This document shows, piece by piece, positions 5,000-57,414 of a stretch of 64,000 nt of DNA (the first letter of the stretch is position 1; each line of letters starts with the position of its first letter). The position numbers were made by a program, and so were the translations under genes. Under the pieces are notes generated by a model. It made no database searches, had not been told where the DNA came from, and saw only the letters and a program-made list of their open reading frames with translations. Where the stretch lies: positions 31,705 to 95,704 of the forward strand of contig DASPYU010000009.1 of the NCBI GenBank assembly GCA_035636595.1, given 5' to 3'. This DNA comes from Thermoplasmata archaeon. Lineage in GTDB: Archaea; Thermoplasmatota; Thermoplasmata; RBG-16-68-12.

Positions 5000-5071
5000 G
5001 GGCCGGTAGATCAGCGGAAGATCGCCTGCTTTGCAAGCAGGAAGTCCTGGGTTCAAATCCCAGCCGGTCCA
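5000..5071 (+). tRNA. tRNA-Ala (anticodon UGC)
   Basis: 72-nt cloverleaf: acceptor GGGCCGG/CCGGTCC with the G3:U70 alanine identity pair, anticodon stem CCTGC/GCAGG with loop TTTGCAA, T-loop TTCAAAT. CCA is not encoded. A T-rich stretch follows at ~5080-5090. Confidence 0.85.
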
Positions 5072-12134: not shown

Positions 12135-12893
12135 TCAGAACCGAGAGCGGAATCGCTCCACAAGGTCCCGATTGCCAACGTAGGTGGGGACCGTCTGATC
12201 GATCGTCGTGGCGGCGACATCGAGGATCCGCTCGGTCCCCGTCGTCCCCGCCCCACCCGCGGCCCCGGCGATGAAGGCGATTGGGTTGGACTCGAAGTGG
12301 AGTCGGTACTTCCCGCTGGGCTTGTCGACTTGCGCGGGATATGCGAAGAAGCCGCCGTAGTGCAAGACCTGATTGAAGTCGGCGACGAAGGAGCCGCCGT
12401 AGCGGAGATTCAGCAGCTCCCGCTCGATCTCCCCGACGAACGCCTTGACCTCGGGAATCCATTTATCGCGGTGGCCACCCAGCCCGTAGAGCTTCCCTTT
12501 CTCCGGGAGCCGAAGACCCTCTTCGATCAACAGGAACTCTTCGGACCGGCCCGATTTGCGCGCGACGAACTCGTGGACGCCATCTGCGGTTGCGTAGACG
12601 AACGTCGTGGCAGGGCCGTAGATCATGTATCCCGCGGCGAACATCTCGGACCCGCGGGCCGGAAGCGTCTTCCCATCGAAGATCCCGAAGATCGTCCCGA
12701 ACGTGTTGTTGCTCTTGACGTTCGAGGAGCCGTCGAGCGGGTCCAGGACGATCGAGAATCGCCCGCCGCCCACGCGCTGGACTTCGCCCATCTCCTCGGA
12801 GGCGACGTGCGAGACGAGCTTCGAATCCCGAAAGGCACGCACGAAGAGATCGTTCATCCATACGTCGAGTTCGAGCTGCTGCTCTCCGTACAC
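12135..12893 (-). CDS. fbp: Fructose-1,6-bisphosphatase class 1, N-terminus uncertain
   Basis: DPLDGSSN metal-binding motif and FBPase class I similarity over the whole ORF. The track start is a GTG, and in-frame homology continues upstream of it (see findings). Confidence 0.8.
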   Translation of the reverse strand: MYGEQQLELDVWMNDLFVRAFRDSKLVSHVASEEMGEVQRVGGGRFSIVLDPLDGSSNVKSNNTFGTIFGIFDGKTLPARGSEMFAAGYMIYGPATTFVYATADGVHEFVARKSGRSEEFLLIEEGLRLPEKGKLYGLGGHRDKWIPEVKAFVGEIERELLNLRYGGSFVADFNQVLHYGGFFAYPAQVDKPSGKYRLHFESNPIAFIAGAAGGAGTTGTERILDVAATTIDQTVPTYVGNRDLVERFRSRF

Positions 12894-13041
12894 GTTGCGG
12901 GTCGCCGCGGGATCCCTTCGGACCGGCAGCTCGCGTCGAATCCGCGTCGCGAGGCCCGCGAACCGCGAGAACAGGCGGCCGAGATCGCGGTCCGCCTTGC
13001 CGGCGTGCTGCGCCAGCGTGACGCCGGCCTTCGGTCCGCCG

Positions 13042-14034
13042 CTAGTAGCCGACGTACCATCCCTCGAACTGATCCAGGAGTTTCTCCTTGCCGCCGTAGA
13101 AGTCCCACCACGGTCGTGCGTGGCGATGGGCGAGGTCCGCGAGGACCTGGAAATTCTTCACGCCCTGCGATCGCACGTACGCGAGCTGCGCCTCGAGGCC
13201 TTTCTCGCGGAAGGCGTCCTTCCAGATCGCGCGACCCGCGAGGAAGCCGGACGCGCCGCCCTGGCAGGCGAGTTCCACGAGGTTCCGGAAGACCCCGAAT
13301 TCCGCTCCCGCGCTTAGGACGACCCAAGGGACTTTCGTCGCGCGGCTGAGTCGCTCGCAGTTCTTCCGGAGTTCCTCCGGGTTCGACGTCGCCTTCGGGT
13401 CCCCCGGGAATTCGGCTTTCAGGACATCGAGCCCCAGAGGAGACAGGGCTTCCGCAGTGCGGATGACGAGGTCGGCCTTGTGCTGCGCGAACGCCTCCTC
13501 GCCCTCATCCACGGGATAGGACATCGGCTCGCACACGAACGCGAGATCGAGACGCCGGCATTCGTCGGCCACGGACCGGACGACCTTCACCTGATGATCG
13601 ACGACCTCTCGAGGCGCGTCGGGATTGAAGAAGATCAGGAGCTTCGCGGCGCTGGCACCGAGCCGCTTCACCTTCTCGACATTCCAGCCGTCAAGGAGCT
13701 TCGTGAGCCGCCAGTTCCCCTTCTTCTCATAGCCCGAGGTCTCGAGAGACACCAGAAGTCCCGTCCTGCCCGGGAGCGCGAAGCGGTTGACTGACGGGCC
13801 AACGCCGAACTCTGGATCGAGGAGATAGCCGCTGGCGAATGGCGCGAGGGCTTGCGTGACGCCGAGTTTCACGGCCTCCATCTCCGCATACGTAGAGGCC
13901 TTCGGGTTCTCCGGGTGGAGCATCTTCTGCAGGCTCCCCCGCTGGTCCATCGCGATCATCGTGAAGCGGCCCGTGTCGTCCGAAATCTGCTGGAGGCCGC
14001 GGAGCTTGCCGACGGAAATCCGCACTGGAACCAC
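13042..14034 (-). CDS. Class I aldolase of the LacD (tagatose-1,6-bisphosphate aldolase) family, probably acting as FBP aldolase
   Basis: Matches LacD blocks: AMDQRGSLQKML (AFDQRGALKRMM in LacD), LLDPEFG, VLKAEFP, VLSAGAEF, GFLAGRAIW. It sits directly upstream of fbp on the same strand. Confidence 0.75.
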   Translation of the reverse strand: MVPVRISVGKLRGLQQISDDTGRFTMIAMDQRGSLQKMLHPENPKASTYAEMEAVKLGVTQALAPFASGYLLDPEFGVGPSVNRFALPGRTGLLVSLETSGYEKKGNWRLTKLLDGWNVEKVKRLGASAAKLLIFFNPDAPREVVDHQVKVVRSVADECRRLDLAFVCEPMSYPVDEGEEAFAQHKADLVIRTAEALSPLGLDVLKAEFPGDPKATSNPEELRKNCERLSRATKVPWVVLSAGAEFGVFRNLVELACQGGASGFLAGRAIWKDAFREKGLEAQLAYVRSQGVKNFQVLADLAHRHARPWWDFYGGKEKLLDQFEGWYVGY

Positions 14035-14328
14035 CCCGACGGTTCGCGAAAAGGGCGGCGCGGTATTGACCTTTGTGGCCGCGAAAAAACGCGGAATGGA
14101 CGCTCTCCGACCGTGGATTTTCTCTCGATTGAAACAATCGACCGCGTCACGAACTCCGAACGCGTTAGTGGCAAGATGGGACCGTGGACGAGCGTGATGT
14201 GGCTCTTGTGGTCCTCTCCAATCGACCTTTGATTCAGCGCACGATGGCGATACGTTCGGCGGAAGCGAGGTAATCGACCAAGGAGGTAACTATATCAGCG
14301 GACCCGCAGCTCTTGCTCTGAGGGTTAC

Positions 14329-16524
14329 TTGTCCCACGGCATCCAGGCCGCGATTCTTCTTGTTGCCCTCGCTGTCGTCGTTCACCTGTCCGTGCCGACT
14401 GCGGACGCCTGGGCGCGCCCGAAACTCAGTTCTGACTCCTGGCTTCCCCCTGAGTCGTCACCGCTCCCCAAGGTTGCGCTAGAAGACCGCCCTCGTTTCT
14501 CGAATCCGCTCGGGAAGGTAGGTCTTGTGGTCGACCCAAATCGACCTAGAGCGTACGTCACAGGCTACGACTCCGTCATCGTCTATTCGACGCTTACGTC
14601 CGAGATCGAAGCACAGATTCCCGTGCGCGCGAACCCCGTGGCTCTCGCGATAAATCCCGCGGCGACGACCCTCTATGTGGGACACGCCGGGAACCGGTCC
14701 ATTCTGGCGATCAACCTCTCGACCTTGTCCGTCACACGCGTCCTCCCAACGGCATTCCTGGTTTGGGATCTTGTCGCCCCCACCAACGAAACCCTCGTCG
14801 CAACAGCCCATGAGGAAAATTGGGTCGACCAACAGCCGTACATCCTCAACTCGACTGACGGAACGGTGCTCGGGCGTCTTTGCGACCCCTCATGGTGCAT
14901 CGTATTTGAAAACAGCTTGGCGACCGTCAGTGCCGACCGCAATTGGCTTTTCCTCGTCGAACCCGCACAGCCCAACTACTTCAGTCGGTTCAGCAAAGGA
15001 CCGGAGCCCTGGAACTGGACCTTTGTCTCCAAGAAAGGCGACCATGGTGTGACGGGCACGAATGCGCAGGATGCCGTCGTTTCCCCTGATACCCAGTATC
15101 TCTACGTCGCGACCAACGGGGACGGGCTCCTTCAGTTCGATGCGACGAATTTCACAATCACGCGGAGGTACGGCACGGCTACAGACTTCTCTGCTGTGGC
15201 TTTATCTCCTTCCGGGAATCAGGTCCTGGGGTGTGCATTCGATGCCGCCCTCCACGTGTTCGATTCGAACGGCCAACCCTTGGTCGACTATCCGCTGCCA
15301 TGGCCGGTTGCGATCGCTCGCCCCTTGCCGGGGGGATATCGATACGCGGCGAGCGCAGGATCCGTCCTCATCATCGTCGGCGGAACGACGCTTACGCCGA
15401 CAAACCCCTACCCGATCTTCGCGGATTCCCGCCCCACGCTGGAGGCTACACTCGCTACGAACCTTAGCGTGGCCGATCTAAGTTTCGAGATGGACCTGGA
15501 TGGAGCTCCAATTGCAGCAACTCTGGACGAAAGCCAGATGATGCTTCGAGGCGTCCCGAATGGTCCGCTCCCGGACGGCAACTACTCCGTCGTGGCAGTC
15601 GCCTCTCGGCAAGGAACCGTAGTGGCGTCCGCAAGCTGGACCTTCGCCGTCGACACGACTCCACCACGCATCGCCTTCGAGCCGCTCCCCGCTGTGGTTC
15701 ACGATTCAGCCATCACCGTACGCGGGACCGTTGAGGATGCGCACCTCTGGAACGTGACCGTGGCGGGCCAGCCGGTGGCGTTCACCTACTGGATGGGCAC
15801 CGTAGCTCAGTTTCAGGCGGTTGTCGGACTCTGGCCCGGAAACAACTCAATCCCCATGATCGCCTCTGATGTCGCGGGGAATCGAGCTTCGATCAACATT
15901 GCGATCGCCTTCGAGCCGCTCTTCGAGTCCTTCTCGGCCGACCTCGGCCACTTCCGCATTCTTGCTCCCATAGGATGGCAGACAAAGGAAGCCGGAGAGC
16001 CGCGCGAAGGCGGTGCCTCACTCCTCATGCCCGGAGGCACGCGCGATGGCACGGCGAACGTTCTCATTTCCTGGCAATCGGCGGTGCTGTGGGGCACTTA
16101 CTCAGAAGCTCGGTCCCTTCTCGAACAGGATTTGCGGGCTCGATCCCTGGACAACTCACCGTATGGGCATTCGATCGTCGAGACGAGCTACGACGGGCAT
16201 CCCGCTGCGCTGGCGACGTTTTCGTTTCCTCCGTCGCCGTATGCGGGCTACCTCGCCCTCGCAGTAGTTGTTGATGGCGACTGGGGTCTGTATTGGAGTC
16301 TGCAGGGGAGCGCGGTCGGGAACGCGACATCCTACGGAACGGTAGTGAGCGAATCAATGGCATCGATTGACATTCTTCAAGCGCCTCCGCCCTCGCTGTA
16401 TTATCGGTTCGCCCAAGCGCATGACGTACTGCTAGCCATCGGGCTCGCCGCAACGGCCCTGGAAGGAACAGTCATGCTGTCGTTGGTTCTCCGACAGAGG
16501 CGGCAGGCGCGGAAGGCTGCGTGA
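14329..16524 (+). CDS. Large cell-surface protein with YVTN-type beta-propeller and Ig-like domains, C-terminally membrane-anchored
   Basis: 731 aa: signal peptide, repeated YVTG../LYVG.. propeller-like blades, C-terminal TM LLAIGLAATALEGTVMLSLVL followed by RQRRQARK. Confidence 0.55.
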   Translation: MSHGIQAAILLVALAVVVHLSVPTADAWARPKLSSDSWLPPESSPLPKVALEDRPRFSNPLGKVGLVVDPNRPRAYVTGYDSVIVYSTLTSEIEAQIPVRANPVALAINPAATTLYVGHAGNRSILAINLSTLSVTRVLPTAFLVWDLVAPTNETLVATAHEENWVDQQPYILNSTDGTVLGRLCDPSWCIVFENSLATVSADRNWLFLVEPAQPNYFSRFSKGPEPWNWTFVSKKGDHGVTGTNAQDAVVSPDTQYLYVATNGDGLLQFDATNFTITRRYGTATDFSAVALSPSGNQVLGCAFDAALHVFDSNGQPLVDYPLPWPVAIARPLPGGYRYAASAGSVLIIVGGTTLTPTNPYPIFADSRPTLEATLATNLSVADLSFEMDLDGAPIAATLDESQMMLRGVPNGPLPDGNYSVVAVASRQGTVVASASWTFAVDTTPPRIAFEPLPAVVHDSAITVRGTVEDAHLWNVTVAGQPVAFTYWMGTVAQFQAVVGLWPGNNSIPMIASDVAGNRASINIAIAFEPLFESFSADLGHFRILAPIGWQTKEAGEPREGGASLLMPGGTRDGTANVLISWQSAVLWGTYSEARSLLEQDLRARSLDNSPYGHSIVETSYDGHPAALATFSFPPSPYAGYLALAVVVDGDWGLYWSLQGSAVGNATSYGTVVSESMASIDILQAPPPSLYYRFAQAHDVLLAIGLAATALEGTVMLSLVLRQRRQARKAA

Positions 16525-16596
16525 CTCGTCCCCACGGATAACTCGCTGCCTTCATCGGCAGAGTCTATTTCATCGGGGAGCGCGCTCTCCCTCTCG

Positions 16597-17268
16597 GTGC
16601 GGCTCCCAGCCATCGTACTGAACTTCAAAACGTATCCCGAGATCCTGGGCAAGAAGGGCTGGGAGCTCGCGAAGCGTTTTGCGGCCGTCGAAGACGACAC
16701 AGGTGCGTCGATCGTCCTTGCCCCACCGATGTCCGATCTCGCCCACATTGCGAAGCTCGTGCACATCCCCGTCATCGGCCAACACGTGGATGCCCTCGAG
16801 CCGGGCCAGACGACCGGATGGACGCCGCCCGAGGCGCTCCTCGAGGCGGGCGCTGCGGGGACGCTCATCAATCACAGCGAGCGCAAGGTCGCCTGGGAGG
16901 AGATGGCGAAGGTCATCCCCCGATGCCGGCAACTCGGACTCGAAGTGATCGCGTGCGCGGACGAGCCGGCGGAGGCGGAGACCCTCGCGAAGCTCTCGCC
17001 CGAGTATATCGCGATCGAGCCTCCGGAGCTAATTGGCGGCGACGTGAGCGTAACGACCGCGCGACCCGAGGTCGTCTCCGGGGCGGTCGATCGGATCCTT
17101 GCGGTGAACCCGCGTGTCCGAGTCCTGTGCGGTGCCGGCGTCAAGACAAGGAAGGATGTCGCGAAGGCCCTCGAGCTCGGCACCTCCGGTGTCCTCGTCG
17201 CGTCGGGCGTCGTGAAGGCGAAGGATCCGGAGAAGGCGTTGCGCGATCTGGTGAAAGGGCTGCGCTGA
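16597..17268 (+). CDS. tpiA: Triosephosphate isomerase, archaeal type
   Basis: 223 aa with VLNFKTY, GQHVD and INHSERK motifs characteristic of archaeal TIM. Confidence 0.9.
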   Translation: MRLPAIVLNFKTYPEILGKKGWELAKRFAAVEDDTGASIVLAPPMSDLAHIAKLVHIPVIGQHVDALEPGQTTGWTPPEALLEAGAAGTLINHSERKVAWEEMAKVIPRCRQLGLEVIACADEPAEAETLAKLSPEYIAIEPPELIGGDVSVTTARPEVVSGAVDRILAVNPRVRVLCGAGVKTRKDVAKALELGTSGVLVASGVVKAKDPEKALRDLVKGLR

Positions 17269-17333
17269 CGGACGCGCGGTTGTAGCGTGCCTGTACGCAA
17301 GCCGCTTATGCCGCCCCGCGGCCGTCGACGTGC

Positions 17334-19391
17334 GTGCGCGACCCGGGACCGGCGCTCGCGACGTTCGTCGTGGCGCTCGTCCTGGCGTCGTCCTCCCCCT
17401 GGGCGGGTGGCGGTGTCGAGACCCTTGGCACTCCCCCTCCTCGGACCGCACCCGCTCTTTTTCCACGGGGGGATGGCGGAGCGAGCCTCCTTCTGACACG
17501 CGTCTACGCGAACTCCGCGCGAGACGACGAGTTCGTCGAAATCGCGAATCTCGGGTCGGAGTCCCGCGACCTCGTGGGATGGTCGCTAACGGATGGCGAG
17601 GCGACCGCTACGTTCCCGCTCGATTCGATCATCCCGGCGGCCGGTCGGCTCTTGGTGGTACGGAACTCGACGAGCTACGCCGAGGACACGCTCGCGATCG
17701 CGGATTTCACGTGGGAGAGCGGCCTCGTTCGTCGGATGGAGGGTGGCATCCTCCGGCTCGCCGACGCGGGCGACGAGGTCCGCCTGCTCGATCAGACCCG
17801 CACCACCGTCGACGCGTACGTGTGGGGGAACTCGGACGACAACGGTCCTGGATGGACCGGCCCTCCCGCGGTAGCCATGGGGCGCGGCGAGATCGCCGTG
17901 CGCACATCGGACGGACTCGGAGGTTGGACCGATACGGATGCCGCCGAGGACTGGGCCGGGGTGCGACATCACCGCCTAGGACAATCGAGTTTCGGACTGT
18001 CCACGTTCGAGATTCGTGGTCGAATCACTCCGGTCCTGTCCCCGGACGCGGGCGATGTGCCGCTGCTTTCGTTCCTCGCCTCCGCGACGCGCTCCCTTGA
18101 TCTCGGCGTCTACACCTTGACAAGTGAGCGGATCGGCGCGGCGCTGGCAAATCTCGCGGAGCGCGGCGTCCACGTTCGAGTCCTCGTGGACGGAGCGCCC
18201 GTCGGCGGCGTCGAGGACGAAGAGAAACGGATCCTCAGCGGACTCGTTCGTGCCGGCGCGGAGGTGAGATGGCTTGCGGGAGGGACGGATGTCGTCAAGA
18301 GATACCGCTACCTGCACGCGAAGTACGCGGTCGCGGACGGCCGCGCGGCCTGGATCGGGTCCGAGAATTTCGGGGCTGCCGGGTTCCCCTCCGGCAATGG
18401 GGATGGCAATCGCGGATGGTCCGCCATCATCGATGACTCCGAGATTGCGCGCGCCCTCGCGGCCGTGTTCGATGCGGACTTCGACTCCCGTCGCCGCGAC
18501 TCGATCCCCGTGCCGCTCACCTCGTTGGACCCGCTTCCGCCACCGCCCGTCGTTTCCCCATGGAGTCCGTCTCTCGATGGGACCGTCCGACCCGCACGCC
18601 TGCTCATCGCCCCCGACAACGCGCTCGATCCCGGTGGCCTCTTGGACGCCATGGCGTCCGCGCAGGACCGCATGTGGATCGAGGCGTTCTACGTCGACGA
18701 GGCGTGGCGAGACGCACCGAACGCGTTGGTCGAGGCGGCGTTCGCGGCGGCGCGCCGCGGCGTCTCCGTGCGGATCGTACTCGATGGGAGCTGGTGGTCG
18801 GTCGGGGAAGGTTCCTCCGGGAATGATCGGATCGTCGAACGCCTCAACGGCCGAGCGCGGAACGAGAGCCTGGACTTGGAGGCTCGGCTTCTGGAACCGC
18901 GAGGCCGCATCGAGCGGCTCCACAACAAGGGCCTCGTCATCGACGGACGCACCGTCCTCGTCTCGAGCATGAACTGGGCCCTCGGGTCCGCCACGGAGAA
19001 TCGGGAGATCGGGATCCTCGTCGAGGACCCGGATCTTGCGGCGTTCTTCGAGGCCGCGTTCGCCGCGGACTGGGACGGACGCCCCACGTCCGGGGTCGAC
19101 GCGTGGCGGCTCGAGGATCCCGCGGTCCTCCTCGGACTGTACGCGTTCGTCGCGGCCGCGTCCGCGATTTCGCTGCGGAAACTGAGAGTCGGGTCCAAAG
19201 GCATAAAGCCCCGCGAGAGGCTGCGAACGCGTGCCTCCCTCGGAGCTCATCTCCGCCGCGGACCTGGAGAAGTTCGGGTACTGCCCGCTGAGCTGGTGGC
19301 TCAGCCGCGGGCTCGCGCCGGAGGAAGGCGCCGAGCTCGCGGAGGGCGAGAAGAAGCACGAGGCCGCCTCCGCGGACCTGAAGGGGATTGA
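17334..19391 (+). CDS. Secreted PLD-superfamily protein: N-terminal lamin-tail domain plus two HKD motifs, C-terminal TM anchor
   Basis: Signal peptide, an LTD-like segment (DEFVEIANLGSESRDLVGWSLTDGE), HKD motif 1 (YLHAKYAVADGRAAWIGSENF), HKD motif 2 (RLHNKGLVIDGRTVLVSSMNW), then TM LLGLYAFVAAASAISL. The ORF runs on 160 nt into the next gene in another frame. Confidence 0.7.
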   Translation: MRDPGPALATFVVALVLASSSPWAGGGVETLGTPPPRTAPALFPRGDGGASLLLTRVYANSARDDEFVEIANLGSESRDLVGWSLTDGEATATFPLDSIIPAAGRLLVVRNSTSYAEDTLAIADFTWESGLVRRMEGGILRLADAGDEVRLLDQTRTTVDAYVWGNSDDNGPGWTGPPAVAMGRGEIAVRTSDGLGGWTDTDAAEDWAGVRHHRLGQSSFGLSTFEIRGRITPVLSPDAGDVPLLSFLASATRSLDLGVYTLTSERIGAALANLAERGVHVRVLVDGAPVGGVEDEEKRILSGLVRAGAEVRWLAGGTDVVKRYRYLHAKYAVADGRAAWIGSENFGAAGFPSGNGDGNRGWSAIIDDSEIARALAAVFDADFDSRRRDSIPVPLTSLDPLPPPPVVSPWSPSLDGTVRPARLLIAPDNALDPGGLLDAMASAQDRMWIEAFYVDEAWRDAPNALVEAAFAAARRGVSVRIVLDGSWWSVGEGSSGNDRIVERLNGRARNESLDLEARLLEPRGRIERLHNKGLVIDGRTVLVSSMNWALGSATENREIGILVEDPDLAAFFEAAFAADWDGRPTSGVDAWRLEDPAVLLGLYAFVAAASAISLRKLRVGSKGIKPRERLRTRASLGAHLRRGPGEVRVLPAELVAQPRARAGGRRRARGGREEARGRLRGPEGD

Positions 19392-20229
19392 GACCCACGA
19401 GGCCCGGGCCCGCGAGGCCGAGACGGGCGTGATGTACTTCGCGATCGCGGCGTCGATCGTCGCGATCCTGGGCCTGAATTTCCTCTCCGCGTCCGCGTTG
19501 CAGGTCGCGCAGATCCTCGGGGCGATCGCCCTCATTTGGCTCCTCGCCGCCGTCTATTTCCTCTACCGCGCGGAGACGCTTGCGACGCCGGAGGAGAAGC
19601 TCCTCTCGGAACGAGTCATCCTGGGATTCGCGATGGCCGCTGCGGTCATCGCGACGGCCGCCGTCTCGTTCCCCGGGTTCGAGAACCAGGCCCTCGCCCA
19701 AGGGTTCGAGGCGATCGCGCTCGTCTGGCTCATCGGCGCGTCGTTCTTCCTGTACCGCTCGATCGGCGCGCTCGCCGTCGCGCTCGCGACCCGCCTGAAG
19801 TACCAAGTGAAAGGCGACCTTGTGTACATCGACTCGACCGCCGAGAAGCCGAAGCTCTTCGTGTCGAAGCGGCACGGCCTGTCCGGCCGGCCCGACGCGG
19901 TCGTGATGGACGGGGACCAGCACATCCCCGTGGAGATCAAGACCGGACGCGTGCCGCGCGGGCCGCTGTTCTCGCACATCCTGCAGGTCGTCGCGTACTG
20001 CTTCCTCCTCGAGGAGGAATACGGCAAGGCGCCTCCGTATGGGATCGTCCGCTACGGGGACACGAACTACGAGATCGAGTACAACGAGGATCAGAAGAAG
20101 CTCCTGATGCAGAAGCTCACGGAGATGCGCGCGGCGATCACGAAAGGCGAGGCGCACCGGAACCACAACCGGCCGGGAAAGTGCGTCCACTGCTCCCGCC
20201 GCAGCGGGTGCCCGGAGCGGCTGGCCTAA
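19231..20229 (+). CDS. Cas4-like (DUF83, RecB-family PD-(D/E)xK) nuclease with a four-TM-helix insertion
   Basis: GTG start. N-terminal ISAADLEKFGYCP (Cas4 N-terminal Cys), RecB motifs GRPDAVV and IPVEIK, QxxxY (LQVVAY), and C-terminal CVHCSRRSGC (C-x2-C-x5-C, Fe-S). An inserted ~130 aa (MYFAIAASIVAILGL.., ILGAIALIWLLAAVYFLY, VILGFAMAAAVIATAAV, FEAIALVWLIGASFFLY) predicts 4 TM helices. Confidence 0.7.
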   Translation: MPPSELISAADLEKFGYCPLSWWLSRGLAPEEGAELAEGEKKHEAASADLKGIETHEARAREAETGVMYFAIAASIVAILGLNFLSASALQVAQILGAIALIWLLAAVYFLYRAETLATPEEKLLSERVILGFAMAAAVIATAAVSFPGFENQALAQGFEAIALVWLIGASFFLYRSIGALAVALATRLKYQVKGDLVYIDSTAEKPKLFVSKRHGLSGRPDAVVMDGDQHIPVEIKTGRVPRGPLFSHILQVVAYCFLLEEEYGKAPPYGIVRYGDTNYEIEYNEDQKKLLMQKLTEMRAAITKGEAHRNHNRPGKCVHCSRRSGCPERLA

Positions 20230-20564
20230 GGCTCCTTCTTCTTGTCGCCGAGGACCACGCCGAGGCGCGCCGCGATCTGCTCGACCCGGTCCGTGAGCTC
20301 GCGGATCTCCTGGCGCATCCGCAGCATCTCCTGCTCGAACGGCGTGAAGCCTTGCGTCGAGAGGACGCGGTGCGACACGAACATCCCGAGGAAGACCGCG
20401 CCGACGATCGACAGCACGGAGATCAGCATGAGGGCGAAGACGAACGTCAGGAACGATCCGATGATGTTGCCCGGGGTGATGAAGCCCGTGACGACGCCGA
20501 TCTCGACCGCCACGAGGACCCCGACGACGAGGATCCAGAGGAGCGTCCAGCGGGAGATCCTCAC
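20226..20564 (-). CDS. Small membrane protein with a C-terminal coiled-coil tail
   Basis: GTG internal start of track ORF 20226..20786. Three TM helices, then EQEMLRMRQEIRELTDRVEQIAARL. Confidence 0.4.
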   Translation of the reverse strand: MRISRWTLLWILVVGVLVAVEIGVVTGFITPGNIIGSFLTFVFALMLISVLSIVGAVFLGMFVSHRVLSTQGFTPFEQEMLRMRQEIRELTDRVEQIAARLGVVLGDKKKEP

Positions 20565-21067
20565 GGCAGCGTCCCCCGACGCGGGATCGACCAGCGGAAG
20601 TCGTTCGGCGCGGTGACGGTGATCACCGTGTTCCGGTTGTCCGCCTCGTACGGGAACGTGAAGACCATGACGGTGCGGTTGTCCGAGTTCTTCTCCGCAT
20701 GGCCCGTGAGGTTGTATTCGAAGTAGTTCCCTTGCTGGTCGACGAAGTATGCGTGCAGGGAGAACGTCGCGTTCGACGGAATCCACGTGTGCTCCTCATA
20801 TGTGTCGAACCAGTCGTAGGCCTGGTTCGCGGCCGGCTCGGACCCGTTCGTCGTCAGGCGGATCTCATCGTACCGGTACGCCTGGACCGCCGCACCCAGG
20901 TTGATGATGAACGTCGAGTCGTTCGCGGACATCCCGACGATCAGGAGGGGCCAGGACGTGAGCTCCGTCGTCGGTCGCCCGAGGAGACTGGGCGTCGCGA
21001 GGATGAGCCCCACGAGCGCCACGATCGTCAGGGCCATCAGGCCCCGATTCCACACCGCGCGCTCCAC
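20561..21067 (-). CDS. Hypothetical secreted or anchored glycoprotein-like protein
   Basis: N-terminal signal/TM plus a domain with many NxS/T sequons (NDS, NGS, NAT, NLT, NRT). Its stop overlaps the downstream start by 4 nt, suggesting an operon. Confidence 0.45.
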   Translation of the reverse strand: MERAVWNRGLMALTIVALVGLILATPSLLGRPTTELTSWPLLIVGMSANDSTFIINLGAAVQAYRYDEIRLTTNGSEPAANQAYDWFDTYEEHTWIPSNATFSLHAYFVDQQGNYFEYNLTGHAEKNSDNRTVMVFTFPYEADNRNTVITVTAPNDFRWSIPRRGTLP

Positions 21068-21117
21068 GTTCGCTCAGAAAGAGGGGTCCGATAATAAACG
21101 TTCGGCGCGCACCGCCG

Positions 21118-21468
21118 TCACGCGGTCTCGGGCCCGAAATGCAGGAGGGAGGCGAAGCCGAACAGGCACGCGCTCACGACCGCCGCGAGGAAATTCGTCG
21201 AGGCGCCTTCGATCGTGCCGTAGGCGAGGTATCCGATGGCGGGAATCGCGAACGACGCGGCGCTGAACAAACCGCTCGAGAGCCAGAGGAACTTCCGGAT
21301 GCGGGCGGTGAAGGTGAGCTCGACTTCCTCTTCGCGCTCGACCGGGGCCGAACCGATGACGAACTTCCAGGTCTGGGCGAGGAGCTTCCAGATCCGGGCG
21401 AGGATGGAGGCGCCCGGGGTCTCGACCGGTGCCGGCGGAACCGAGACGGGTTCCGTGACCGTCGCCAT
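21118..21468 (-). CDS. Small hypothetical membrane protein
   Basis: 116 aa with two C-terminal hydrophobic helices. Confidence 0.4.
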   Translation of the reverse strand: MATVTEPVSVPPAPVETPGASILARIWKLLAQTWKFVIGSAPVEREEEVELTFTARIRKFLWLSSGLFSAASFAIPAIGYLAYGTIEGASTNFLAAVVSACLFGFASLLHFGPETA

Positions 21469-22077: not shown

Positions 22078-23271
22078 TTGGTGCTCGGTGTGCGACCTGG
22101 AGCGAATCGTTTATCGGGGCTGCGCCGCTTCGTCGGGCTCGTGGTCCCGGCGCCCTCGGACATCTTCCTGCTCCCGGGTCCGGTCAAGATGGATCGCCGC
22201 GTGATCGAGGCGATGGCGGTCCCGGCGATGAACCATCGCGGGCCCGAGTTCAAGGAGGTCCTCGCGGAGATCCGGACGCTCACCCAATACGCATTCGGGA
22301 CGACCGGCCCCGTCGCGGTGCTCTCGGGGTCCGGCACCGCGGGCCTCGAGGCGCTCGTGACCGGCCTACTGCGCAAGCCGGACGCCGTCCTGAATCTCGT
22401 GAACGGGAAATTCAGCGAGCGGTTCCACGAGCTCTGCCAAGTCTTCTCGACGCCGACCGCGCTCCCGTTCGAGTGGGGGACCGCGGTCGATCCCGCGGCG
22501 GTTGCCGAGGCGATGGACGCCCGGCGATACAAGGCGGTCACGTTGTGTTGGAACGAGACGTCCACGGGCCTGACGAATCCCATCGCGGACATCGCGAAGG
22601 CCGTGAAGGAGCGGGGCGCGCTCTTCCTCGTTGACGGCATCACGGCCGTGGGCGGCCTCGAGAACCGCATGAGCGCGTGGGGCGTCGACGGACTGGTCGT
22701 CGGGTCGCAGAAGTGCCTCGCAGCCCCTGCGGGTCTCAGTGCGGTCGCCCTCTCGCCACGGGCCTACGAGTCGCTTCATGGCGACACGTCGTTCTACGCG
22801 AACCTCAAGGCGCACATCGACGCGCTGGAGAAAGAAGACACGCCATTCACTCCCGCCGTGCCGCTGTTCCTGGCGTACCGCGAGGCGCTTCGCGTCCTCC
22901 GGGAGGAAGGACTCGAGCATCGCATTGCGCGGACTCGGAAACTCGCCGCGGCGGCCCGGGCCGCGTTCGACGCGCTGGGCCTTGCCCTGTATCCGGACCG
23001 CCGGTTCGCGTCGGACACCGTGACCGCAATCCGGTATCCCGAGAGGATGGACGATTCCAAGTTCCGGAAGATCCTCCGCGAGAAGCATCGAACGATCGTC
23101 GCGGGCGGCCAGGCGCAGCTGAAGGGCAAGATCTTCCGGATCGGCCACATGGGCATCTGCTCGTTCGAGGACCTCCGAGCCGGCTTCGCCGCCATCGAGC
23201 AGACGCTCGCGGAACTGGGGCGGTCCGTCGAGACCGGGGCGGCCGTCGAGGCCATCGCGAGCCGCGCGTGA
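22078..23271 (+). CDS. Class V aminotransferase (AGXT/SGAT/PSAT family, PLP-dependent)
   Basis: LLPGPV..EAM N-terminal block and the PLP-lysine motif VVGSQKCL. The track start is TTG; a GTG at ~22141 giving MVPAPSDIFLLPGP is a plausible alternative. Confidence 0.8.
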   Translation: MVLGVRPGANRLSGLRRFVGLVVPAPSDIFLLPGPVKMDRRVIEAMAVPAMNHRGPEFKEVLAEIRTLTQYAFGTTGPVAVLSGSGTAGLEALVTGLLRKPDAVLNLVNGKFSERFHELCQVFSTPTALPFEWGTAVDPAAVAEAMDARRYKAVTLCWNETSTGLTNPIADIAKAVKERGALFLVDGITAVGGLENRMSAWGVDGLVVGSQKCLAAPAGLSAVALSPRAYESLHGDTSFYANLKAHIDALEKEDTPFTPAVPLFLAYREALRVLREEGLEHRIARTRKLAAAARAAFDALGLALYPDRRFASDTVTAIRYPERMDDSKFRKILREKHRTIVAGGQAQLKGKIFRIGHMGICSFEDLRAGFAAIEQTLAELGRSVETGAAVEAIASRA

Positions 23272-23277
23272 CGGCCG

Positions 23278-24258
<981 letters not shown>

Positions 24259-57341: not shown

Positions 57342-57414
57342 TGGGCTCGACCGGATTCGAACCGGTGACCTTCGCCATGTCAAGGCGATGTCATAGCCAC
57401 TAGACCACGAGCCC
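57342..57414 (-). tRNA. tRNA-Val (anticodon GAC)
   Basis: 73-nt cloverleaf on the minus strand: acceptor GGGCTCG/CGAGCCC, anticodon stem TCGCC/GGCGA with loop TTGACAT, T-arm ACCGG-TTCGAAT-CCGGT. CCA is not encoded. Confidence 0.85.

Follow-up and report, generated by a model that had tools for sequence, protein, structure and literature searches.

Domain architecture and predicted topology of the LTD-PLD protein

Within the 64-kb window (the whole stretch of DNA analyzed here), an uncultured Thermoplasmata archaeon encodes a protein that combines a lamin-tail domain (LTD) with a phospholipase D (PLD)-type catalytic domain. The open reading frame is a real gene and a member of a large uncharacterized family; an identical protein is available from NCBI (HYS99485.1) under the name 'phospholipase D-like domain-containing protein [Thermoplasmata archaeon]'. 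The gene overlaps a downstream gene for a Cas4-family nuclease. The features of the locus are the following (positions in the window):

17306..17311, + strand: TATA-like element CTTATG, at -28..-23 of the PLD start codon
17334..19391, + strand: LTD-PLD gene, 685 aa, GTG start, stop codon at 19389-19391
17334..17399, + strand: N-terminal hydrophobic segment, residues 1-22, predicted Sec-type signal peptide or signal anchor (hydropathy, AlphaFold2)
17481..17963, + strand: lamin-tail domain, residues ~50-210, Ig-like beta-sandwich carrying a conserved N111-x-T sequon
18003..19088, + strand: two-lobed PLD catalytic domain, residues ~224-585
18315..18368, + strand: HKD motif 1, with H328, K330, D335, S343 and N345 (invariant alignment columns)
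18921..18974, + strand: HKD motif 2, with H530, K532, D537, S545 and N547 (Pfam, alignments)
19119..19187, + strand: C-terminal transmembrane anchor, residues 596-618 (hydropathy, AlphaFold2)
19188..19388, + strand: Arg/Lys-rich predicted cytoplasmic tail, residues 619-685 (pI 12, pLDDT <50)
19203..19208, + strand: ATAAAG, the TATA box of the Cas4-like gene, embedded in the PLD reading frame, at -28..-23 of the Cas4 GTG
19231..19391, + strand: 161-nt overlap of the two genes (PLD in frame 0, Cas4-like gene in frame +1)
19231..20229, + strand: Cas4-family nuclease gene (TIGR00372, alignments, hydropathy, AlphaFold2, Foldseek)

The preliminary description of this locus proposed a signal peptide, an LTD, a two-HKD PLD fold and a C-terminal anchor, and this architecture was confirmed by hydropathy, Pfam and the AlphaFold2 (AF2) model, with the N-terminal segment best termed signal-like. 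The strings that it quoted are all present, namely DEFVEIANLGSE...GWSL at residues 64-85, LHAKYAVAD at 327-335 and HNKGLVID at 530-537. The LTD is supported by a match to PF00932 at residues 50-165 (48.8 bits against a Pfam gathering cutoff of 34.3, E 1e-12) and by the Ig-like beta-sandwich fold of this region. PLDc_2 (PF13091) matches at two places (146 bits, cutoff 27, E 7e-43), with the PLDc active-site motif at residues 528-549, and the catalytic domain adopts the pseudo-dimeric alpha/beta fold of the PLD superfamily with a single active site where the lobes meet. Each HKD motif is complete (H328-x-K330-x4-D335-x6-G-S-x-N345 and H530-x-K532-x4-D537-x6-S-S-x-N547), and their catalytic residues are invariant across the 64 aligned homologs, as is a basic/aromatic stretch, K322-R-Y-R-Y326, directly N-terminal to HKD1 in the alignments.

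By hydropathy, the N-terminal hydrophobic segment spans residues 3-22 and the only transmembrane (TM) segment spans 596-615; in the AF2 model, a helix (residues 7-18) is followed by a disordered Pro-rich linker (23-48), the beta domain and the PLD core, with the TM helix (596-618) after these, and only 14 residues separate the catalytic domain from the anchor. Because a signal-like N-terminal segment is combined with a C-terminal TM segment and a basic tail, the catalytic domain is predicted to lie outside the cell, and the strongly basic character of the tail (pI 12, compared with 4.7 for the overall acidic ectodomain) is consistent with the positive-inside rule. The conserved N-x-T sequon, the AF2 model and the presence of the cell-surface domains CARDB and PKD in larger LTD-PLD paralogs further support this orientation. 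An equivalent of the N-terminal segment was detected in 105 of 139 family representatives and a C-terminal TM segment in 113, with both present in 83. We infer that this is a type-I membrane protein with a tethered, extracellular enzymatic part.

Far from unusual, the combination is common: the LTD+PLD unit occurs in at least 757 clusters at 50% identity (cluster representatives, E<=1e-30), and some members exceed 2000 aa and contain duplicated modules. A metagenome scan was seeded with an alignment of seven distant LTD-PLD proteins. In the literature library searched, no experimental characterization of the family came up, and a search for LTD in combination with phospholipase D returned nothing relevant.

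The overlap and the Cas4-like neighbor

The overlap of the PLD gene with the Cas4-like gene, noted in the preliminary description, is real, measures 161 nt and is conserved in the close clade; in the more distant clade, the PLD gene ends 4-45 nt upstream of the Cas4 start. The overlap contains the conserved N-terminus of the Cas4-like protein, including an Fe-S cysteine, and codon-position diversity indicates selection in the Cas4 frame only. Judged from this pattern of variation, the last 53 residues of the PLD protein (633-685) are a read-through passenger into the next gene, free of selection in the PLD frame, and are unlikely to serve a function themselves. Across the 139 representatives, the median length of the C-terminal tail is 10 aa, compared with 67 aa (residues 619-685) here. 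A GIKP motif is conserved in the PLD tail because the TATA box of the Cas4-like gene lies there.

Both genes are preceded by promoter-like elements. A (C/G)TTAT element occurs at the same distance from the PLD start codon in related loci, suggesting that the PLD gene has its own promoter and yields a leaderless transcript. Upstream of the Cas4 GTG, TAA is found at -27..-25 in all 26 overlap-clade loci, and most of the 17 further loci listed have a TATA-type box at the equivalent distance. These separate elements suggest separate leaderless transcripts, and the Cas4-like gene appears, on this sequence evidence, to be expressed from its own promoter and not to be an obligate partner of the PLD gene. 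A GAGG sequence is located 12-17 nt upstream of the Cas4 GTG. Obligate co-transcription, with the overlap and the GAGG sequence taken as signs of an operon, was considered and rejected once the conserved TATA box had been found. A scan for sigma-70 promoters and terminators, a model not applicable to archaea, gave nothing useful. The locus illustrates that a long and conserved gene overlap may look meaningful and yet bear selection in one frame only.

The neighbor is the more novel of the two genes. Its product matches TIGR00372 above the cutoff (80.9 bits against 65), Cas4 structures are the best Foldseek matches of its AF2 model, and it retains the RecB-type D...ExK core (D222, E235, K237) along with four Fe-S cysteines, one N-terminal (C18) and three C-terminal (C318, C321, C327), all invariant in the alignments. 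Between Cys18 and the nuclease core, hydropathy and the AF2 model reveal an insertion of four TM helices (~residues 67-182); literature searches turned up no relevant report of a Cas4 inserted in the membrane. At least one public annotation contains a truncated version of this gene. No CRISPR repeat array was detected in the 64-kb window, and the gene calls at three related loci include no cas genes (at the remaining loci, the comparison covered the genes of the window); the gene is a 'solo' Cas4, not associated with a CRISPR-cas locus.

Relatives of the catalytic domain

When a profile of the LTD-PLD protein was compared with PDB sequences, the matches were to 7e0m (6e-20), PLD3 (1.6e-13), Zucchini (5e-11), PLD4 (8e-11), NucT (6e-10) and Nuc (1.7e-8), whereas Streptomyces PLD and cardiolipin synthases (Cls) gave no match at E<=1e-3. 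By both fold and profile, the catalytic domain is nearest to the PLD3/PLD4 5' exonucleases, Serratia SpPLD and vaccinia F13, and is not close to cardiolipin synthases; PLD3/PLD4 are the closest structural class.

The endolysosomal 5'-3' exonucleases PLD3/PLD4 and the poxvirus F13/K4 proteins are eukaryotic or viral, with only ~20% sequence identity to the archaeal protein, and have an N-terminal type II helix anchor and no LTD, in contrast to the C-terminal anchor and LTD seen here. The residues with which human PLD3 contacts its substrate are Tyr411, which stacks on a base, Phe335, Trp367, His369 and Tyr437 (PMC12749308); in the profile alignment, the Tyr411 position is a gap and the other four fall in poorly aligned loops. 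In the Pfam and PDB comparisons, SpPLD of Serratia plymuthica (PDB 7e0m) is a 391-aa chain that lacks both the LTD and the C-terminal anchor; its authors pointed to loops resembling those of nucleases and to a basic loop that would poorly accommodate acyl chains, and left its substrate unsettled (PMC8004604). Nuc, NucT, BfiI and Zucchini are homodimers of ~150-200-aa chains with one HKD motif each, whereas the archaeal protein fuses two HKD lobes in a single chain.

A parallel in layout comes from a different enzyme fold. ExeM/Xds of Shewanella and Vibrio share with the archaeal protein an N-terminal signal peptide (a signal-like segment in the archaeal protein), an LTD, a phosphoesterase part and a C-terminal TM segment followed by basic residues. 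ExeM, in which the phosphoesterase part is a nuclease, stays attached to the cytoplasmic membrane and attacks DNA in the vicinity of the cell, with lower activity when the LTD is removed (PMC6085458). The catalytic part of ExeM consists of an OB-fold region and a metal-dependent EEP nuclease instead of a PLD fold, and Pfam detected no EEP or OB match in the archaeal protein. Moreover, ExeM is a bacterial, periplasm-facing protein with a GlyGly-CTERM/rhombosortase signal, and no such signal was seen in the archaeal protein.

Proposed function

We tentatively propose, with a probability of roughly 0.45, that the LTD-PLD protein is an extracellular, membrane-tethered phosphodiesterase whose likeliest substrate is extracellular nucleic acid. 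A nuclease is favored because the profile relatives are of the nuclease type, because ExeM and SpPLD provide precedents, and because the K-R-Y-R-Y stretch before HKD1 is invariant. The N-terminal signal-like segment would carry the chain across the membrane; outside, a flexible Pro-rich linker would lead to the Ig-like LTD, and the two HKD half-domains would pack to form one PLD-type active site, while the single C-terminal helix would hold the protein in the membrane with the basic tail in the cytoplasm. Enzymes of the PLD superfamily form a phospho-histidine intermediate, the second histidine activates water, and no metal is needed. By analogy, the histidine of one HKD motif would attack the phosphodiester to form such an intermediate and the other would activate water. 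Degradation of extracellular nucleic acid at the cell surface could then serve nutrient or phosphate scavenging, a role that would parallel those of the LTD-bearing, anchored ExeM and the membrane-tethered exonucleases PLD3/PLD4; for the archaeal protein, 5' exonuclease activity on ssDNA or ssRNA is a candidate activity only.

Several observations count against a nuclease: the ectodomain pI of 4.7 is atypical of many DNA-binding nucleases, the analysis identified no substrate-specific feature in the archaeal protein, the 14-residue linker to the TM anchor also suits an enzyme working on the membrane surface, and the genes conserved beside it in other lineages encode rhomboid and presenilin-type proteases instead of transporters for nucleosides or phosphate. 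The short linker and the acidic ectodomain would equally fit an extracellular phospholipase D or transphosphatidylase that cuts or exchanges phospholipid head groups, either remodeling the head groups of the cell's own outer leaflet, with formation of cardiolipin-like lipids, or using foreign bacterial lipids as a source of phosphorus or carbon. In line with such an activity, the nearest structures, PLD3/PLD4, have in one report also been described as acting on lipids, in BMP synthesis and as lipid transphosphatidylases (PMC12055030), and a role in targeting proteins to membranes has been suggested for LTDs (Mans et al. 2004, quoted in PMC6085458). Nevertheless, we consider a phospholipase possible but rather unlikely: the profile relatives are of the nuclease type and not Streptomyces-type PLD or Cls, the Cls and ClsB models score far under their cutoffs, the characterized LTD-bearing enzyme found in the literature search, ExeM, is a nuclease, and no lipid-metabolism genes are conserved beside the LTD-PLD gene at the compared loci.

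Genomic context of the gene pair

The preliminary description considered an extracellular PLD enzyme overlapping a Cas4-like nuclease an unusual pairing. The evidence bears out the architecture but lends no support to this pairing as a functional unit. Adjacency of the two genes is limited to one syntenic block, TIM-PLD-Cas4-...-Kae1, in which they are directly adjacent and on the same strand at every locus, with identities of 36 to 95% for PLD and 49 to 89% for the Cas4-like protein. Among the loci of more distant LTD-PLD genes, 76 of 80 have no Cas4-like gene within 5 kb, and the exceptions carry the TIM synteny. Conversely, the more distant Cas4-like genes at ~25 loci lie in a different context, with no PLD within 6 kb; in 12 of these, the upstream ORF belongs to one shared family, an example of which matches Pfam TPD (clustering of ORFs at these loci was noisy, owing to spurious high-GC ORFs, and only this TPD-domain neighbor was retained). 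Given that the flanking housekeeping genes for TIM, an aminotransferase and Kae1 are conserved equally well in the block, vertical inheritance explains the adjacency; the overlap is the inherited gene order of one lineage, not a conserved two-gene system, and the separate TATA-like boxes and the unselected PLD tail agree with this.

It is accordingly improbable that the LTD-PLD protein and the four-TM Cas4-like protein form one membrane-spanning module for DNA uptake or defense, in which the nuclease outside hands DNA to the nuclease inside, although the overlap or a gap of at most 45 nt is maintained throughout the block and both products are membrane proteins whose nuclease-type folds are predicted to lie on opposite sides of the membrane (AF2, hydropathy, Foldseek). 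More improbable still is a specific trans-membrane DNA-handling device in these Thermoplasmata, with DNA cut outside and processed inside for uptake or scavenging. Solved Cas4 proteins are described as forming toroidal oligomers (Lemak et al. 2013), and an oligomer of the four-TM Cas4 could conceivably line a pore, which is speculation by analogy. A defense system was also considered and rejected: PADLOC yielded only generic PLD (DrmC-type, MkoB/C, DpdK) and Cas4-type similarity, no defense-island context surrounds the pair, the DISARM DrmC model scores 78.5 bits against an NCBIfam cutoff of 133, and the DISARM partners (DrmA, DrmB, methylase) are absent from a neighborhood that consists of TIM, the Cas4-like gene, small membrane proteins, the aminotransferase and Kae1.

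Finally, a cytoplasm-facing cardiolipin or phosphatidylserine synthase is suggested by JGI homolog names ('cardiolipin synthase A/B', 'phosphatidylserine/phosphatidylglycerophosphate/cardiolipin synthase-like enzyme') and by weak matches to the ClsB (NF008427, 51 bits against a cutoff of 281) and Cls (TIGR04265, 33 against 290) models; ClsA/ClsB are membrane-associated members of the PLD superfamily with two HKD motifs. This reading is extremely improbable, given that both scores lie far under the cutoffs, that the profile search of PDB found no Cls, that the predicted topology is opposite, with a signal-like N-terminus, a C-terminal anchor and a basic tail instead of an N-terminal TM pair (or none) and a cytoplasmic catalytic domain, and that the LTD, and CARDB/PKD in paralogs, are additional. 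Neither outcome that the preliminary description named as refuting its reading was obtained: the domain searches do not place the protein among cardiolipin synthases, and the LTD similarity is supported.

Implications

The present results clarify a family whose database labels vary between 'cardiolipin synthase' and 'phospholipase D-like': they favor an enzyme that faces outward, is tethered to the membrane and is nearest to the PLD3/PLD4/SpPLD branch. If the substrate is extracellular DNA or RNA, these proteins would be part of phosphorus and nucleotide scavenging by uncultured soil and sediment archaea.

Domain architecture of the LTD-PLD protein

The gene at 17334-19391 (+), with a GTG start and a 685-aa product (window G+C, 60-68%), is real, and the preliminary description read its architecture correctly, down to the motif strings, every one of which is found in the translation. 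Pfam recognizes the lamin-tail domain (LTD, residues 50-165; 48.8 bits, cutoff 34.3) and, for the phospholipase D (PLD) fold, two PLDc_2 domains (146 bits) together with the PLDc active-site motif. Both HKD motifs (H328/K330/D335/S343/N345 and H530/K532/D537/S545/N547) are complete and unchanged across 64 homologues with 53-95% identity; an invariant K-R-Y-R-Y lies just before the first. Hydropathy delineates a hydrophobic N-terminal segment (3-22) and a single transmembrane (TM) segment (596-615), and the AlphaFold2 model (mean pLDDT 80.8, pTM 0.76) contains the following regions:

residues 7-18, N-terminal helix
after this helix, disordered Pro-rich linker
residues about 50-210, confident beta domain
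residues 224-582, PLD core
residues 596-618, TM helix
after the TM helix, unstructured tail

The proposed C-terminal anchor is supported by hydropathy and model alike, and the proposed signal peptide corresponds to a signal-like segment that is hydrophobic and helical. The ectodomain is acidic (pI 4.7) and the tail beyond the TM segment strongly basic (pI 12). An identical NCBI entry, HYS99485.1, is annotated [quoted passage not shown].

A family of PLD-fold enzymes with predicted surface anchoring

There are at least 381 close homologues at E<=1e-5; nearly all of the best 120 are about 615-730 aa long and share the LTD+PLDc_2 architecture, and the few that carry names come from Thermoplasmata/"Methanobacteriota" MAGs. 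Against 1.84 billion cluster representatives, exhaustively searched with HMMER, the protein had 5488 matches at E<=1e-3, of which 757 reached E<=1e-30; lengths ranged from about 550 to 2400 aa, and most of the 150 best matches aligned end to end over the complete LTD+PLD unit (query about 50-585). Six larger members were scanned with Pfam: in three, each about 2000 aa long or longer, it found four LTDs, four PLDc_2 domains and CARDB, consistent with duplicated LTD-PLD modules, two per giant protein, and in two, of about 870 aa, PKD. CARDB and PKD are typical cell-surface domains. Seven giant homologues (P0242-P0245, P0254, P0266, P0269) span 1900-2400 aa, and most have a TM helix in their C-terminal part, often with a long tail beyond it. 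An N-terminal hydrophobic segment is seen in 105, and a C-terminal TM in 113, of the 139 representatives that have 540 aa or more; the median length of the cytoplasmic tail is 10 aa. The architecture is, on these counts, common; a literature search found no characterised member. LTD-PLD joins, as a new member, a large and recognisable, though uncharacterised, family of surface-anchored PLD-fold enzymes.

Five lines of evidence lead us to predict that the catalytic domain is located outside the cell: the signal-like N-terminal segment; the C-terminal TM with its basic tail; the N111-x-T sequon, kept in 63 of 64 homologues; the surface domains of the paralogues; and the family-wide pattern of N-terminal segment and C-terminal TM.

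Genomic context

The gene belongs to a conserved block (TIM, LTD-PLD, Cas4-like, small membrane proteins on the minus strand, aminotransferase, Kae1), which recurs in some 50 loci of GTDB species genomes; in every one of them the PLD gene immediately precedes the Cas4-like gene. The relevant features are:

12135-17268, FBPase, DeoC-family aldolase and archaeal-type triosephosphate isomerase (TIM)
17306-17311, TATA-like box (C/G)TTAT of the PLD gene, -28 to -23 of its GTG, conserved in related loci
19203-19208, TATA-type box ATAAAG of the Cas4-like gene, -28 to -23 of its GTG, inside the PLD coding sequence
19231-20229 (+), Cas4-like gene
19231-19391, 161 nt where the PLD and Cas4-like genes overlap
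20226-21468 (-), genes for three small, putative membrane proteins, converging on the Cas4-like gene
22078-24258, aminotransferase and Kae1/TsaD

The flanking genes are housekeeping ones; the locus belongs to the core chromosome and is neither a mobile nor a defence island. There is no CRISPR array within the window, and the sole Rfam matches are tRNAs at 5000-5071 (+) and 57342-57414 (-).

The overlap noted in the preliminary description is real, and so is the Cas4-like start at 19231, because the encoded N-terminus (SAxDxEKxGYC18PLxWW) is conserved among full-length homologues. In the overlap, as sampled by 26 close-clade loci, the nucleotide diversity at the three codon positions of the Cas4 frame is 0.149, 0.110 and 0.357, a pattern that is the same downstream of the overlap; in the PLD frame, the lowest diversity (0.110) falls on the third position and the highest (0.357) on the first, and codon periodicity changes frame at 19231. 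Judged from these diversities, purifying selection in the overlap acts on the Cas4 frame only, so the apparent conservation of the PLD tail is a by-product; its conserved "GIKP" is explained by the ATAAAG box that encodes it. TAA occurs at -27 to -25 of the Cas4 GTG in all 26 overlap-clade loci, and TATATAA or GGTAAATA type boxes lie at the same distance in most of 17 other loci. The spacing of -28 to -23 is expected for archaeal leaderless transcripts, and since each GTG has such a box, the two genes appear to be separate transcription units; read-through is also possible.

The clade whose PLD proteins show 52% identity or more keeps the overlap. In the distant clade (36-42%), the PLD frame mostly closes 4-45 nt upstream of the Cas4 start or runs only slightly past it, indicating that the long PLD tail is a derived read-through, which fits the short median tail of the family. 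Locus L028 breaks the overlap rule inside the close clade, which may reflect a frameshift or assembly error.

Beyond the block, the two genes part. About 25 distant Cas4-like loci (about 50% identity) have unrelated contexts with no PLD gene within 6 kb. Among 80 metagenome loci with distant LTD-PLD genes (25-46% identity), a Cas4-like gene is downstream in three, all with TIM upstream, and one further locus has a weak partial Cas4-like match upstream on the opposite strand. Because distant relatives of either gene are mostly unpaired, the best explanation of the adjacency is that the block was inherited vertically, not that the two genes are obligate partners, and the probability of a functional link is small. 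What had seemed an unusual pairing comes down to lineage-specific synteny and an unselected read-through overlap: the pair is conserved in the syntenic block but absent from most distant loci.

Several other neighbours were observed. Twelve of the distant Cas4-like loci without PLD (type-B, L053-L084) have upstream ORFs of a single family, at a median distance of about 50 nt; the sole one scanned, in L069 (ends 2308, +), matches Pfam TPD (PF14811, CDIN1-like PD-(D/E)XK). In 32 of 76 distant LTD-PLD loci (L094-L160; G+C 25-53%), a rhomboid protease gene (PF01694) is downstream on the same strand after about 30-200 nt, mostly 100-130 (e.g. L156, 6815-7774 (+); L160, 7083-8009 (-)), followed in most by a convergent presenilin/SPP-type protease gene (PF06550). 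By analogy with what has been proposed for rhombosortase substrates, a rhomboid beside a C-terminally anchored protein could allow regulated release; the arrangement is not present in the window's lineage.

In the window, the 731-aa product of the gene at 14329-16524 (+) opens with a signal-like stretch, contains a beta domain of the Glucodextran_B type and has a C-terminal TM, after which comes RQRRQARK. Counterparts with 30-35% identity lie between DeoC and TIM in some related loci only, so this looks like a variable surface protein. The three small membrane proteins have no Pfam or PADLOC match. The gene for the first adjoins the Cas4-like gene throughout the block; in the window, the stop regions of the convergent genes overlap by 4 nt. 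A 186-aa ORF among the three is probably over-extended, since its counterparts in related loci are called at about 113 aa, and the third gene contains a 21-nt tandem duplication (21364-21404).

The Cas4-like neighbour

The 332-aa Cas4-like protein passes the Cas4 model TIGR00372 (80.9 bits, cutoff 65); its NCBI entry, HYS99486.1, is a 198-aa fragment. Four hydrophobic helices (about 67-182) separate the N-terminal Fe-S cysteine C18 from a RecB-type nuclease core (D222, E235, K237; C318, C321, C327) that matches type I-C Cas4, Cas4/Cas1 fusions, ACE1 and MGME1. With an even number of helices, the N-terminal cysteine and the core would face the same compartment, so the Fe-S cluster could still form. 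Relatives occur in 305 stretches of GTDB species genomes, and all 80 of those listed come from Thermoplasmata-type MAGs; the Cas4 phylogenomics paper makes no mention of TM-bearing Cas4 proteins.

Enzyme type and substrate

Placement among cardiolipin synthases, envisaged earlier as the contrary outcome, was not seen: the protein scores far below the curated cutoffs of the cardiolipin synthase (Cls), ClsB, NucT and DrmC models. Compared with PDB sequences, the family profile matches SpPLD of Serratia plymuthica best (7e0m, 6e-20), then PLD3 (1.6e-13), followed by Zucchini, PLD4, NucT, Nuc and then PS synthase (3.5e-5), with no Streptomyces-type PLD or Cls among the matches. The authors of the SpPLD study leave its substrate undecided and stress nuclease-like loops (PMC8004604). 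PLD3 and PLD4 are 5' exonucleases with established ssDNA contacts (PMC12749308); the position of hPLD3 Tyr411 is a gap in the family alignment, where the ssDNA-contact residues are not reliably mappable. The Shewanella extracellular nuclease ExeM, which is retained on the membrane, combines a signal peptide, LTD, nuclease and C-terminal anchor (PMC6085458), sharing the LTD and anchor with LTD-PLD and having a nuclease as its catalytic part. Action on lipid head groups is a serious rival; by analogy with its nearest relatives and with ExeM, LTD-PLD would act on nucleic acid, the favoured substrate. The substrate of the LTD-PLD family is worth follow-up, and so is the four-TM Cas4.
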